From: a virus
Lineage: Duplodnaviria; Heunggongvirae; Uroviricota; Caudoviricetes
Length of the DNA: 44,108 bases
Direction: 5' to 3' (one strand)
IMG/VR virus record: IMGVR_UViG_2529292919_000018
Below, one piece after another: positions 8,674-13,243 of the stretch (positions within the stretch are counted from its first letter, which is position 1; each line of letters opens with the position of its first letter). The notes under the pieces are model-generated. The model made no database searches, had not been told where the DNA came from, and worked only from the letters and a program-made list of their open reading frames with translations. A program made the position numbers and the translations under genes.

Positions 8674-9039
8674 ATTAAAGAGCATTAGTTCAGATGTGAA
8701 TTGACATTGTGTGGCACAGGGTTGGGCTAGCGTGGGGGTTTGCTTTGTGTAAGAAACGGATGCTCTGCAAATTACTACTAATGCTTAATGTTAGTCTGAT
8801 CTGCTCCCCGATGATTAATACACCGCTATGTTAGTAATGTCTGTAGATCGCTGTGTGTTGCATCCATCGGTTGACCCCACAGTCCAAACCAGACTGTCAG
8901 CTTTGATTCGATTCTATCTACTCAACCTGTCAGGTAATGTCTGAGCTAATACACAGAGTACGGCTATCGCGAACTTTAAGCTAGGTATCTGATACGCACC
9001 GTTCACTTGGTCGTACTTCTTGCACTGACTAGCTATCGT

Positions 9040-9112
9040 GCGCAGTTATTTATAGGTAATCTCCAGTGTATAATTTTCCAACTTATGGGAGATTGTAAAA
9101 CAGGAGGAATAT
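9040..9112 (+). promoter_or_regulatory. Putative promoter (-10 TATAAT at 9069-9074) and strong RBS (AGGAGG 9102-9107) for the 280-aa gene
   Basis: Consensus -10 hexamer and consensus SD 5-6 nt before ATG 9113; -35 weak/uncertain. Confidence 0.4.
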
Positions 9113-9955
9113 ATGAGGAAAAAATCGTTTGGACGTTGCCCGTTTGATTTCGACGAAGATGTAAAAAAAATAGCCGCGATAAATAAATATATCCATGCGA
9201 AATTTGAGAGGCATAAAAATAAAATAGATAACCTAAAGGGGGTGGAACAAAAATTGATGGTTTTACATTACTTTAATGTACTGAATGAACTTAGTAATCA
9301 GGCTATATTTTCTTTGAGTACCGGAGCCTTTTCAGCATCGGAAGTATTAACTAGAGTTATAATGGAACAGGCTGCCAATCAATTTTATATAGCAATTGAT
9401 GATGGAAAAAATGCACAAGCATTACTCAAGGGTAGTAAGAAATTAGTTCATAGTAATGGGAAACGGTGGCTGGAGTGTTTAAAATCCAAAGAAATGACTA
9501 ATCCAGCAGCAGATGAAAGGATTCGTATCGGAAAAGAGCTAACTGATATGTTTAATAGATTGTGGCCAAATACACCTGAATATCCTGGAACCAAAAAGCT
9601 TTTCGAAGTAATTGGCTGGGAAACACACTATCATGCCTATTACGTCCCTCTTTGTGATTCAATACATACATTCTCTGATGATATGGCAAATATAGTATCT
9701 CTATATAATGCAATCCAAAGCGATAAAACTACTGCTATCGAACTCACTCTTGCAGTTAAACAAGAAAATAAACGGCTGGCAATTTATAATGTCGTAATTG
9801 CTATTGGCCTGCGGTGTGAGGCCTTAGTAAATGTATTTAACTCTTTAGGTTATCGAGATATTATAACTGAAATGGCGCCAACAATAGATGCAGTCAACCA
9901 GATTATAATTCGATATGATGATTTCGAACATTCCAGAATTTTTTATTGTCAATAA
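9113..9955 (+). CDS. Hypothetical 280-aa protein, no recognised family; candidate accessory/defence cargo
   Basis: AT-rich ORF with strong RBS; C-terminal RYDDFEH fits an R-x5-H pattern (weak HEPN-like hint only); lies in low-GC island next to ATPase-HNH pair. Confidence 0.65.
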   Translation: MRKKSFGRCPFDFDEDVKKIAAINKYIHAKFERHKNKIDNLKGVEQKLMVLHYFNVLNELSNQAIFSLSTGAFSASEVLTRVIMEQAANQFYIAIDDGKNAQALLKGSKKLVHSNGKRWLECLKSKEMTNPAADERIRIGKELTDMFNRLWPNTPEYPGTKKLFEVIGWETHYHAYYVPLCDSIHTFSDDMANIVSLYNAIQSDKTTAIELTLAVKQENKRLAIYNVVIAIGLRCEALVNVFNSLGYRDIITEMAPTIDAVNQIIIRYDDFEHSRIFYCQ

Positions 9956-10099
9956 TTAATTGGCAGAATTCGTACATGCACAACAACTAGTTATAGTTGA
10001 CCTATTTCGCTCTTGAGAGACAACCATACTCAAATCTTCCACATTGCAGGAGATTTGAGTATGAATACGTCACCGAGGAACAAAGACAGTATCATAGGC

Positions 10100-10581
10100 C
10101 CAAAAAGACCACTTCAGATATCTCATATCTGGGGGCTCCAAATCCGGCTTGAACTGGAAGGTAAAACGCGTGATTTAGCTCGGTTTCAAGCAGAGCTACG
10201 GTGCTGCAACTGAAAAACTGGCAGTCCTATCCAATTTGAGATAACCAAAGGGACAAGAGAAGCTGTTTCTGCATTGATAAAGCTTGGCAATTTACGCAGT
10301 AAAGACTACTTGTTCCGATCTCGGGTCGGTACTAACCAACACATATCAATCCTGCAATATAACCGAATCTTTCATAGGGGGGAGAAAAGCTTGGTCTCGA
10401 AGATTCGCTTTACAGCACACATTCCATGAGAAGAACAAAACCTTGCCTTGTCTGCAAGAAAACTAAGAATCTCCGGGTGATCCAACTTCCGTTGGGCCAT
10501 AAGAAAACGGAAAGCACAGTTCGTTATCTGGGTATAGAAGTTGATGATGCATTAGAGATCTCTGAATCGATCGAAGTCTAA
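10100..10581 (+). pseudogene. Degenerate tyrosine recombinase (integrase) 3' fragment with in-frame stop and frameshift
   Basis: Frames concatenate to ...KTGSPIQFEITKGTREAVSALIKLGNLRSKDYLFRSRVGTNQH.../...LYSTHSMRRTKPCLVCKKTKNLRVIQLPLGHKKTESTVRYLGIEV-stop: HxxR box, LRVIQ, LGH and catalytic Y in canonical spacing, broken by TGA near 10211 and frame change near 10375-10400. Confidence 0.6.
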
Positions 10582-10993
10582 AGCTGTCAGGGCTGCAGCA
10601 GCAGCCCTGTGCCAAGAGCGTACCAATATATGTCTCAAAAAATTGGGCACAGGTCAATATCAATACCAACAACTCTGATTGTGCTCATGTGATTTACTCC
10701 TGTAGAAAACGCAGACAGTAAAAATATTTCACTGGCTGCTTCAGACAGGGCGTCCATCATATCATTACATAACAATAGCGGGGCACGATATCTAGACATG
10801 CAGCAACGATGGACATAGAATGAGTACAATCAAAAGCATGTTTAACTACTTTAATTTAAAAATCTTAGAATCTTAGGTGTAGAGTTCAATACTTAGTTAC
10901 ATACCCTTTTGAAAGCATCACAAATCATAACTATGAGCCTGTTAAAGGCATAGGTATTCTTAATTAAGAGCATTTTAATGAGAGAAAAATAAA

Positions 10994-12367
10994 ATGAAAA
11001 GACTATATTATACCCATCATGATAGTCGAACCTTAAAACTTGCTATAGAAGGTGATGTTTCTGATAATGCGAATACTTTTACAGTAATTGTAGGTAAAAA
11101 TGGCGTTGGAAAAAGCAGATTGTTATCTCAGATTGCTAAAGACTGTATTCAAGATATTCATTTCTTGAAAACTTTTAATCCATTATTTGACAGAGAAATA
11201 ACACCAAAGTTAATTGCCGTATCTACCAGCCCATTCGATAAATTCCCTCCAGGGCGTAGGTCATTAAATCACCAAAGGAAAGAAAATAATTATCGCTATG
11301 TGGGTATGCGTGGAGAAGGCCCCTTCGGCGTATCAAATGCCGTATCCCTTTTATCTTCAGCAGCGAGAGGTTGGCTAGAGAAACTTGCTTATTCAGAAAA
11401 TCCTGCAAATTTACTCGATGTTTTTCATTCTATTGATTTTGAGCCCCATATAGAGTTTGTATTTAAACCAACTTACAACGGACCGGACACTCCTGACTAT
11501 AACTTCATTGGTGTATATTCAGATGAGATATTAACGGAAGTTAAGGAGTTATATTTAAAATACAATATAAAAATTGACAGGAAGAATATTGAGAGTCTCT
11601 TAAAGTTAAACTCCGAATCACGTCATGATATTTACGAAGCACTGGTTGAAATTAATCGATTTGAACCTGAACGTAGGGCTGTAACCTTGTCAGTCGATTT
11701 TACCAATGGTGAAACATTGGTTGGCTCGACTTATGCGAATAATTATTTTTCTAGATCAATTCTTAAACTTATGAACGCTGGCTTCATGAGATTGATGGAT
11801 ATGCGACTCATAAAAAAAAGCTATGGTCCCATGTCACTTAAACGTGCGAGCTCGGGAGAACAATGTTTATTAGTGATGTTGCTTGGAATTGCAGGGCATA
11901 TAACTGATGGTTCTATAATACTAATTGATGAACCGGAAATAAGCTTGCATCCTCGATGGCAGGAAGAGTTTATCATTATGTTAACAAAAGCATTTTTAAC
12001 TTACTCAGGTTGTCAATTCATAATTGCAACTCATTCACCACAAATAATATCCAATTTGCCGAATAAAGGTTGTTATATAACATCTTTGTCGAAAAGTTAT
12101 CTTTATAAAGCAAAATACTTTAGCAACCGGTCTGCAGACTATCAACTTGCGGAACTATTTGATGCCCCTGGCATTATGAATGAATACATTGCCAGATTAG
12201 CTTTCAATTTACTTTCAAAAGTTAAGACTGCTAAGTTAGTAACAGATGATAATTGGCGTGAATTAAAACAACTCCAGCTTCTCCTTGAAAACGTTAATAG
12301 TAATGACCCTATTAATGAACTCGTAAATTCCGTATCTCAGGTGTGTGAAATTTATGCCAAAAATTAA
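10994..12367 (+). CDS. ABC-type (AAA_15/21-like) ATPase, PtuA-like (Septu-like defence ATPase)
   Basis: 457 aa; Walker A VIVGKNGVGKS, signature-like LKRASSGEQ, Walker B/D-loop IILIDEPEISLHP, H-loop IIATHSPQI; AT-rich; 3' end overlaps downstream HNH gene. Confidence 0.8.
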   Translation: MKRLYYTHHDSRTLKLAIEGDVSDNANTFTVIVGKNGVGKSRLLSQIAKDCIQDIHFLKTFNPLFDREITPKLIAVSTSPFDKFPPGRRSLNHQRKENNYRYVGMRGEGPFGVSNAVSLLSSAARGWLEKLAYSENPANLLDVFHSIDFEPHIEFVFKPTYNGPDTPDYNFIGVYSDEILTEVKELYLKYNIKIDRKNIESLLKLNSESRHDIYEALVEINRFEPERRAVTLSVDFTNGETLVGSTYANNYFSRSILKLMNAGFMRLMDMRLIKKSYGPMSLKRASSGEQCLLVMLLGIAGHITDGSIILIDEPEISLHPRWQEEFIIMLTKAFLTYSGCQFIIATHSPQIISNLPNKGCYITSLSKSYLYKAKYFSNRSADYQLAELFDAPGIMNEYIARLAFNLLSKVKTAKLVTDDNWRELKQLQLLLENVNSNDPINELVNSVSQVCEIYAKN

Positions 12368-12989
12368 AAATCCAATTAGATTCAGCGCAGAGTCATTAGA
12401 TATTATTGAGAAAAAATTGTCTTCTCCAGATTTTAAGCATACCAACTGGGGAGATGATGATTTGCAAGTTCTCCGTGCAGAAATTAGAAATCATTACAGA
12501 GAAGAACAAAAGCTAGAATGTGTATATTGTCATGAGCCTATTGGGGTAAGAGCTGCACAAGCTGCTCCTATAGAGCATATTGTGCCAAAATCTCAATATC
12601 TATGTTTTATTTTTGAACCTAAGAATCTATGTGTAGTATGTCCTGACTGCAATGAATTCAAAGGTAAAAATGAAGTGTTATTTGAACCCGTAATAAATGG
12701 GGGGCGGCGCAAAAACTATCCAACTGCATCTGCATCATTTCGCATCGTTCATCCACATATAGATGATTATGAGATGCATATTATAAAAGCAAATCGTGTT
12801 TATGTGGACAAAACACCTAAAGGGCACTATACCATTGGAATATGTAAACTAAATAGATTTTTTCATTATTTTGGGATGTGTGATGAATTTGTTAATGATG
12901 CAAAAATTGCTGAGGCAAATGAAAATTTTTTCAAAAAAGGTAGTATTACTACTAATGAATTATTGGATGATGACATTCATTTGATTTAA
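12345..12989 (+). CDS. HNH endonuclease, PtuB-like (Septu-like partner nuclease)
   Basis: About 211-214 aa (GTG 12345 or ATG 12354); CVYCHEP...IEHIVPKS...CVVCPDCNEFKGKN = CxxC...H...CxxC HNH zinc-finger nuclease motif; overlaps ATPase stop. Confidence 0.8.
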   Translation: MKFMPKIKNPIRFSAESLDIIEKKLSSPDFKHTNWGDDDLQVLRAEIRNHYREEQKLECVYCHEPIGVRAAQAAPIEHIVPKSQYLCFIFEPKNLCVVCPDCNEFKGKNEVLFEPVINGGRRKNYPTASASFRIVHPHIDDYEMHIIKANRVYVDKTPKGHYTIGICKLNRFFHYFGMCDEFVNDAKIAEANENFFKKGSITTNELLDDDIHLI

Positions 12990-13243
12990 CTATGAATTAT
13001 TATATTGTAAAGTAATCAGGTAAGATATGTTAGACAGTGAGACTATTGCCTTACAGAATTCATTATTCTTATGGATCGCCTTTCTGACTGATTTCATATT
13101 GGCGGGGTAACGGGAGTTAAGTAGAATGGCTGCGGGTGCTTGAGGCTATCTGTCTCAGGCATGAACACCAAAGGCAGATAGAGAAAAGCCCCAGTTAACA
13201 TTACGCGTCCTGCAAGACGCTTAACATTAATCTGAGGCCAATT

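Follow-up and report, generated by a model that had tools for sequence, protein, structure and literature searches.

How did an ORF-free leader, an orphan gene, an integrase remnant and an ATPase-HNH gene pair come to stand in a row between the replication genes of a phage and an insertion sequence (IS)? The question is raised by an AT-rich island in the 44,108-nucleotide stretch of Caudoviricetes DNA analyzed here (the window; IMG/VR record IMGVR_UViG_2529292919_000018). Positions 8300-13400 of the window were identical to positions 1,276,428-1,281,528 of the chromosome of Escherichia coli O127:H6 E2348/69 (NC_011601). According to the RefSeq annotation, the host element of the window is a Rac-like lambdoid prophage integrated beside potC. 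The comparisons reported below make it fairly probable that the island is a decayed array of site-bounded accessory cassettes, grouped round a small tyrosine recombinase and accommodated in a Rac-like docking slot. From left to right, the proposed layout would comprise a relic site, a cassette with the leader and a DUF5677 gene, another relic site, the dead recombinase gene, a site, a cassette with the genes ptuA and ptuB, a right site that would have been lost, and the prophage backbone.

Composition, limits and variability of the island

The G+C content at positions 8772-13061 (4290 bp) was 36.6%, versus a mean of 51.3% (standard deviation 2.2, minimum 46.0, up to about 56%) in the other 4.29-kb segments of the 44-kb sequence. 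The G+C content of third codon positions (GC3) was shifted as well, with values of 0.27, 0.28, and 0.21 in the three intact island genes and of 0.47-0.64 in the neighboring phage genes. The sliding-window G+C content and GC3 were therefore strongly non-uniform, in agreement with the original prediction of a low-GC mosaic island, and each of the elements listed in it (the ORF-free leader, the orphan gene, the integrase remnant, the ATPase-HNH pair, and the IS) was found to be present.

The AT-rich block itself was confirmed; however, the limits first proposed for it (8690-13243) had to be corrected to 8772-13061. On the left side, the Rac backbone reaches about position 8771, since positions 8608-8771 align to positions 2704-2866 of L006 (loci collected for comparison are designated L). 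On the right side, homology to the hok/sok loci of other phages and prophages starts at position 13062, and 13243/13244 is merely the stop codon of a transposase ORF, which reads out of the IS. Both edges have lost backbone sequence. On the left, ydaW is incomplete and lygF is mostly gone, while the phage comparison showed both genes intact at the same position in relatives; on the right, the L' site and about 250 nt found in phage mEp460 and strain 2-101 are absent from the window.

The full island was found in 19 of 5,426 complete E. coli genomes, which means that its gene set is not core. Alignment of related prophages placed the slot between the replication genes and hokD and revealed alternative cargo in it, namely PD-T7-1 as the sole cargo in phage mEp460, three cargos together with an intact recombinase gene in strain 2-101, and YdaW/LygF/DNA-binding genes in vB_EcoS-666R9. 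The locus is thus a variable cargo hotspot, as had been expected from its composition, and variable moron/defence slots are already known from lambdoid phages. The elements that had been described as separate ones in a row are real; they are better read as one modular array organized by a recombinase and its sites.

Putative recombination sites, alternative cargo and the recombinase module

In pairwise comparisons, every homology breakpoint coincided with a repeated site of about 24 nt, which consists of the inverted arms GTCCGCT/AGCGGAC and an asymmetric center (consensus GTCCGCT-CCTSGCWCAA-AGCGGAC). The sites were searched for with a calibrated model, R1, trained on 17 copies, instead of an earlier loose regular expression that had given 15 hits versus 15.2 in shuffled sequence. 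With R1, about 35 further copies were detected at E < 1e-3, all of them in Enterobacterales loci gathered by recombinase similarity alone, and many were arranged as back-to-back pairs about 40 nt apart.

When the loci were oriented by the recombinase gene, two core classes of Enterobacterales sites, TCGCTCA and TGGCACA, pointed in opposite ways. This association of class and orientation was observed in 19 of 19 training copies and, among the independent ones, in 19 of 21 copies with the TCGCTCA core and 22 of 24 with the TGGCACA core. A TGGCACA site on the minus strand followed by a TCGCTCA site on the plus strand bounded 27 of the 34 site-bounded segments. One block, L019 14931-15874, breaks the rule, having a GCAC core on the plus strand and a GCTC core on the minus strand; it could be a sub-array inversion or a second array in reverse. 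The modules of the Pseudomonas type (L037, L040, L052-L055, and L077; Pseudomonas/Stutzerimonas) have near-identical inverted sites, G[GT]CCGCTTCTGGCCGGTTAGCGAC, at about -103 and +643 from the recombinase ATG, with related copies within a few kb.

In the 44-kb window, no copy of the site was detected by R1 at E < 1e-3. The left docking site (Table 1) scored 8.8 bits versus 31 bits for its orthologous intact copies in L006 (2834-2861) and mEp460 (2642-2669), the R-class site at 10607-10620 scored 8.4 bits versus 24-31 bits for intact sites, and the degenerate L-class site to the left of the recombinase remnant was not picked up by the model. A segment with the left docking site (L004 4250-4503), located beside the YeeP/YkfA-type GTPase gene of CP4-like islands, was found in 4,176 of the 5,426 E. 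coli genomes, often twice. As the recombinase gene was found in about 830 genomes, docking sites may be far commoner than the recombinase.

Unrelated cargos were seen to switch exactly at the sites in Rac-like phages, P2-like phages, CP4-like islands, and plasmids, including PD-T7-1, HEC-08, dynamin-like, HerA, dGTPase, a GNAT pair, ArsB, and others. The PD-T7-1 cassette, whose 449-aa protein was identified by PADLOC (7e-157), shows 99.6% identity when phage mEp460 is compared with E. coli 2-101, versus 90.3% and 94.9% for the flanking Rac backbone. The three homology blocks of this pair overlap by 28 and 35 nt, exactly at two sites, and at the right junction the switch takes place inside the shared core TCGCTCA. 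Between strains SA186 and 144, the sequence is identical across HEC-08 and the recombinase gene; the next cargo is wholly different (ETEC_3214 with a hypothetical gene versus dynamin-like genes), and homology is resumed at the next site. A third cargo, a helix-turn-helix (HTH) and GNAT pair, occupies the same island position in BCE049 (L105 7586-9031) between sites of 31 and 26 bits and without the recombinase. The recombinase gene is likewise missing in mEp460 (L089 2642-4608), where PD-T7-1 lies between a strong pair of sites. An intact array with the HEC-08/recombinase context was noted in strain Nissle 1917 (NZ_CP022686, hit H114), with 100% identity to the query half. The immediate neighbors of the recombinase in 80 loci included HEC-08, SIR2, PD-T7-1, Nsn, DRT, Gabija, pAgo, Lamassu, Old, Avs, and PD-T4-2, as well as LysR regulators, transporters, and transposases.

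The recombinase gene of the window is a pseudogene. An 82-nt deletion takes out the box-I catalytic Arg region, further frameshifts follow, and the RefSeq annotation reads 'frameshifted; internal stop'; the catalytic set R...K...HxxR...H/W...Y of the Pfam family Phage_integrase (PF00589) is therefore not found in its frame. The gene of strain S88 is intact and encodes about 195-200 aa. An intact relative matches PF00589 at 5e-19, and L004 6054-6656 keeps the motifs LRGCD...HSLRRT...LGH...RYL. WP_001305361, found in strains SA186 and Nissle 1917, is an example of an intact recombinase. The best NCBIfam matches of the recombinase reached 58 bits versus a cutoff of 220 bits for the Xer/integron models. 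On its own, the gene occurs at about 90% identity in roughly 800-830 E. coli genomes with unrelated genes on either side, and the alignments bound its module sharply at about 700 bp (0.7 kb). A survey of one genome per species in GTDB revealed more than 547 loci with relatives of the recombinase (61-97% amino acid identity) in Gamma- and Betaproteobacteria and a few other phyla.

The modules share the order of an upstream site, a hairpin sequestering the Shine-Dalgarno (SD) sequence and start codon, the gene, a GC-rich hairpin, and a downstream site. In 68 of 80 loci (L003-L088), at least 3/4 of the SD sequence is paired in the hairpin (median z = -2.7), and the stems co-vary. The hairpin recalls the way in which IS transposases are protected against read-through transcription by fold-back inhibition. 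A lox-like 13-13-13 palindrome at the start of the recombinase gene was considered as a crossover site and rejected; it lies inside the conserved module, was never seen at a breakpoint, and behaves as the SD/AUG hairpin. At the right end of the module in the window, homology to all other recombinase modules ends at positions 10588-10623.

Explanations considered

According to the explanation preferred here, an intact 200-aa recombinase would catalyze the exchanges by acting on the sites of about 24 nt with an asymmetric 7-nt core, an enterobacterial cargo lying between one TGGCACA-core site and one TCGCTCA-core site of opposite orientation. Since the two flanking cores differ, cross-recombination between them would be blocked, so that a single cargo could be neither inverted nor lost by excision and would instead be swapped or integrated at the cognate sites of another replicon, as a counterpart in nature to recombinase-mediated cassette exchange. 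With the catalytic Arg region of the recombinase missing and the sites degraded or deleted, the island of the window would be frozen, and the fossilization of the array would account for the 19 genomes that carry it unchanged. As for the wider significance, the chances are about even that the recombinase and the two site classes represent an undescribed, still-active system that moves defence genes (PD-T7-1, HEC-08, Septu, SIR2-HerA, dGTPase, and others) and other accessory cargo among the lambdoid phages, P2-like phages, CP4-like islands, and plasmids of Proteobacteria.

An exchange of this kind has to be distinguished from a phase-variable switch, in which the segments would be invertible in the manner of shufflons or fim, the recombinase would toggle the expression of flanking cargo, and the window would contain a locked switch. 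Inverted sites do flank every segment, including the recombinase gene; the protein is of the size of FimB/FimE and weakly matches the NCBIfam 'tyrosine-type DNA invertase' model (8e-6); depending on the locus, cargo genes face either way with respect to the recombinase; and the exceptional block of L019 has reversed site classes. Such a switch is nevertheless highly improbable. Flipped junctions of the recombinase module or of the HEC-08 cargo were found in 0 of about 330 complete E. coli genomes with this context, which argues for cassette exchange rather than phase variation, and inversion switching was discarded on this ground. In addition, the flanking cores differ, and in known tyrosine-recombinase systems, such as the variants of lox and FRT, differing spacers block recombination.

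The DUF5677 and recombinase genes might also make up a self-contained unit, which could be a mini integrative element or a defence system of two genes dependent on the recombinase and which landed beside an unrelated Septu pair. The block of leader, DUF5677, and recombinase genes indeed recurs at about 89% identity in P2-like prophages, e.g., between the tail-fibre assembly and tail-sheath genes of S88, so that it is shared by Rac-like and P2-like prophages, and a preprint reported DUF5677 to be enriched beside small serine recombinases in Bacillota (PMC12632615). In the same preprint, however, the one Bacillota DUF5677 ORF tested was not among the five ORFs listed as giving defence (PMC12632615). 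The recombinase gene of the roughly 800 genomes is mostly not accompanied by DUF5677, and homologues of DUF5677 occur without any recombinase (L091 and L093). E2348/69 and 18 relatives keep DUF5677 intact while the recombinase is dead, which indicates that DUF5677 does not need the recombinase. A self-contained unit is improbable in view of these data.

Independent accretion appears rather unlikely too. It would imply piecemeal illegitimate or RecA-dependent recombination at a generic 'moron' hotspot, with DUF5677 and the recombinase, Septu, and the IS acquired separately, the repeats serving as REP-like terminators or insulators, and the recombinase uninvolved. The absence of a site at the right junction and the deletion of backbone at both edges are in line with it, and so are the P2-like prophages with DUF5677 and the recombinase but without Septu, the fact that this Septu was never seen with intact sites, and the ability of the site arms to form a 7-bp hairpin. 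It is less compatible with the co-occurrence and co-variation of sites and recombinase across taxa (enteric GTCCGC...GCGGAC versus Pseudomonas GGCCGC...TTAGCGAC), the strict association of core class with orientation, the breakpoints inside the 7-nt core, and the site-bounded position of the recombinase gene itself. Moreover, repeats of thirty nucleotides are poor substrates for RecA.

The cassette array thus remains the preferred explanation, and several observations weigh against it or narrow it. The deletion predicted between same-class direct repeats, joining HEC-08 to the L' backbone, was found in no genome. The palindromic sites could also serve as terminators or supply short stretches of homology to RecA-dependent exchange. 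The Pseudomonas-type modules have one core class, and the two-class rule is consequently shown for the enterobacterial branch only. Among 30 site-bounded cargos sampled from independent Enterobacterales loci, five had PADLOC matches (two HerA, a dGTPase, a helicase, and a ThsA-like protein) and 25 had none, and a Pfam scan of 33 site-bounded cargo ORFs detected the non-defence families ArsB, MFS, SDR, NUDIX, DJ-1, GNAT, and DUF4238, with many ORFs lacking a family. As most cargos have no PADLOC match, the system is to be regarded as a platform for accessory-gene cassettes with prominent defence genes rather than a defence-only one. Finally, the DNA of this Septu was present in 19 of the 5,426 complete E. 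coli genomes, each time inside this island, and no such sites were found round PtuA homologues of 41-51% identity in viral contigs, for which reason the idea that Septu relatives form site-bounded cassettes elsewhere was rejected. With no site at the right edge of the island, the left junction is the only one that connects Septu with the sites, and it is a toss-up whether Septu belongs to the array and came as a cassette.

Island genes, the hok/sok locus and comparison with known systems

The features of the island and its flanks are listed in Table 1.

Table 1. Positions of island and flanking features in the window.
Feature	Position	Strand	Remarks
Truncated ydaW/DUF1627 pseudogene	8399..8601	+	Last backbone gene before the island (RefSeq NC_011601)
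Decayed left docking site, R' class	8738..8760	-	End of the Rac backbone; core TTACACA, not TGGCACA
Non-coding leader of the DUF5677 cassette	8772..9112	+	From 8796 about 88% identical to the S88 P2-like prophage copy
Cargo A, DUF5677 protein, 280 aa	9113..9955	+	All-alpha
Degenerate L-class site	9996..10022	+	Left end of the recombinase module (GTTGAC...TCGCTCTTGAGAGAC); aligned to intact L sites
Palindrome sequestering the Shine-Dalgarno sequence and ATG of the recombinase gene	10025..10063	+	
Pseudogene of a small (200-aa) tyrosine recombinase	10061..10581	+	Alignment to the intact S88 gene
GC hairpin (10588-10609) and R-class site	10588..10623	-	Right boundary of the recombinase module; TGGCACA core, GTACGC outer arm
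AT-rich spacer upstream of ptuA	10626..10993	+	Unique to this island
Cargo B gene 1, PtuA, Septu ABC-type ATPase, 457 aa	10994..12367	+	PADLOC PDLC00283
Cargo B gene 2, PtuB, Septu HNH nuclease, 211/214 aa	12354..12989	+	PADLOC PDLC00325
hok/sok leader of the Rac backbone	13062..13294	+	Outside the island; Rfam sok match 13134-13300
IS481-family insertion sequence, 1094 bp	13295..14388	-	Pfam rve and HTH; RefSeq 'IS481 family transposase'
hokD toxin coding sequence	14404..14559	+	Cut off from promoter and leader by the IS

The ATPase-HNH pair is, by its profile matches, a full-length Septu system and belongs to known biology, so that the novel or poorly described system expected at this locus is not to be sought in it; the cassette array and the DUF5677 gene do answer to that description. 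PtuA matches its PADLOC model at 2e-165 over positions 2-455 of 457 and also Pfam AAA_21 and AAA_15; the motifs Walker A (GKNGVGKS 34-41, G34-S41), SSGE signature (286), Walker B (IILIDEP 308), and H-loop (THS 346) are present. PtuB matches its model at 1e-83 and Pfam HNH, and the CxxC pairs and the EH...N motif are kept. The two genes overlap by 14 nt (12354-12367). Promoter-like hexamers, which are consensus matches only, were noted in the spacer upstream of ptuA at 10793-10821 and 10842-10871. No ORF resembling a reverse transcriptase was found in 8772-13061, no retron RNA family was found in the Rfam scan at E ≤ 1, and the NCBIfam retron-Ec78 PtuA model gave a weak, sub-threshold match (66 bits versus a cutoff of 500). 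In the absence of a reverse transcriptase and a retron RNA, the pair was classified as a stand-alone Septu and not as a type I-A retron. Of the structurally solved PtuA proteins, 8ee4 was matched at E = 3e-7 along some 50 residues, and no sequence match in PDB was obtained for PtuB; with sequences so far from solved structures, the pair represents a divergent yet recognized Septu subtype. The mechanism of an E. coli Septu and of the retron-Eco7 PtuAB has been established: both enzymatic activities are needed, the response is abortive-infection-like, and infection triggers cleavage of tRNA-Tyr in its variable loop (PMC13096335). By analogy with these characterized relatives, the Septu of E2348/69 is probably functional and is assumed to act by the same mechanism.

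The product of the orphan gene matched Pfam DUF5677 at 3e-9 and had no PADLOC or NCBIfam match. A profile search yielded 52 relatives, mostly from Pseudomonas and Enterobacterales. In Pseudomonas lurida (L093 585-9891), a homologue has an nSTAND NTPase gene on one side and a CBASS-like SMODS/AGS_C and SLATT_6 pair on the other, a defence-island setting without a recombinase. On contextual grounds, the DUF5677 gene is a candidate conflict-system gene. To HEPN RNases, which are characterized by a four-helix core and a conserved Rx4-6H motif, the protein showed a resemblance at the fold level only, no conserved motif being seen, and the assignment was not adopted.

In the leader of this gene, a TATAAT-like box (9069-9074) and AGGAGG (9104-9109) were read by eye. 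The leader also holds CAGACTGTCAG (8890-8900) and CCTGTCAGG (8927-8935), which are like the outer flank GCGGACTGTCAGAT of many sites and may represent relic half-sites or accessory binding sites; R1 gave them only 1.9 bits. A non-coding RNA of the retron or ToxI type was rejected for the leader, with no Rfam match, folding z values of -0.46 and +0.57, and no tandem repeats. An imperfect 35-nt inverted repeat (9026-9060 and 10764-10798, 77% complementary) encloses DUF5677 together with the remnant of the recombinase gene. It was not accepted as a pair of element ends, since the intact S88 copy lacks an equivalent, and the repeat is therefore probably a chance match in AT-rich DNA.

To the right of the island, the sok match (RF01794) reached 112 bits with E = 1e-25. 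The IS assumed to adjoin the island is present; however, 233 nt of the hok/sok leader lie between them. Its transposase ORF (13244-14332, minus strand) runs 51 nt past the IS end into flanking DNA. The IS is bounded by a 6-bp target duplication, AGGAGA (13289-13294 and 14389-14394), strain FORC64 has the empty site, and the insertion point is the Shine-Dalgarno sequence of hokD. Both parts of the hok/sok locus are there, split by the 1094-bp IS rather than joined in one transcription unit. The IS481-family element is a later insertion, unrelated to the island, which disconnected hokD from its leader. At 14567-14648, Rfam gave a weak isrK-like match, whose 25.7 bits fall short of the gathering score of 50. 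This match overlaps with a terminator-like hairpin immediately after hokD (14627-14644) and is probably just the hok terminator.

For strain E2348/69 the practical yield is modest, comprising a probably functional Septu, as judged from its relatives, and a DUF5677 gene in a frozen island, and, outside the island, a hokD silenced by an IS. The hopping of defence genes between hotspots is usually put down to 'recombination at conserved flanks', and the comparisons made here point to dedicated site-specific machinery. If true, this would explain why the same defence genes occur with base-pair-precise boundaries in unrelated mobile-element hotspots, and the unannotated cargos, DUF5677 included, would form a catalogue of candidate new defence genes. 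If the system is confirmed, its sites would provide a precise computational handle for delimiting cassettes and mining cargo genes, and the two-core design would offer a natural template for cassette-exchange tools. No earlier description of the recombinase/site system was found in the literature searched, the coverage of which was limited and does not disprove the existence of one; Vassallo et al. only mention 'a nearby integrase gene'.

Regarding the known systems represented in and beside the island, the ptuA-ptuB pair is similar to Septu type I in having an overlapping two-gene operon with an ABC/SMC-like ATPase and an HNH nuclease and no reverse transcriptase; it differs in being only distantly related in sequence to the structurally solved PtuA proteins. 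The hokD locus resembles the IS-inactivated chromosomal hok genes of E. coli, with a full sok/leader and an IS parting the leader from the toxin coding sequence, but here the IS belongs to the IS481 family and lies precisely in the hokD Shine-Dalgarno sequence.

The recombinase/site system itself shares with shufflons and fim (Rci, FimB/FimE) a small tyrosine recombinase and multiple inverted sites bounding segments; unlike in those, no inversion polymorphism was detected, and each segment carries entire, unrelated genes instead of alternative gene ends or a promoter. Like dif (pdif) modules, it includes accessory modules between inversely oriented short palindromic sites, arranged in arrays and shared among replicons. 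It is set apart from pdif modules by a dedicated recombinase gene (200 aa) that forms a module of its own, by the division of its site cores into two classes of fixed polarity, and by its occurrence in phages, genomic islands, and plasmids from Enterobacterales and proteobacterial relatives. The site consensus is unlike that of E. coli dif/cer, which consists of XerC and XerD arms in an 11-6-11 arrangement, and the sites were not assigned to the Xer type. The pdif modules of Acinetobacter plasmids are XerC/XerD-dependent, site-bounded, and arrayed (PMC13141974, PMC6449649).

Integrons are similar in combining a tyrosine recombinase with arrays of mostly single-gene cassettes that carry defence and resistance cargo, and the recombinase-less arrays of mEp460 and BCE049 correspond to clusters of attC sites lacking integron integrases (CALINs). 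The differences are a catalytic-domain-sized recombinase that is not IntI, duplex-type palindromes of about 24 nt instead of folded attC sites, and cassettes placed both ways round with their own leaders and without a common Pc promoter, where integrons have attI and promoterless cassettes in one orientation, so that the arrays were not classified as integrons. Engineered cassette exchange with heterospecific lox/FRT sites likewise places cargo between two sites that share arms and differ in their spacers, which would prevent inversion or excision and permit replacement by double crossover; it is a laboratory design, and the analogy proposed here is drawn from sequence patterns and the lack of flipped junctions. 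Overall, the recombinase/site system most resembles pdif modules, integrons, and engineered cassette exchange, yet departs from the defining features of each.

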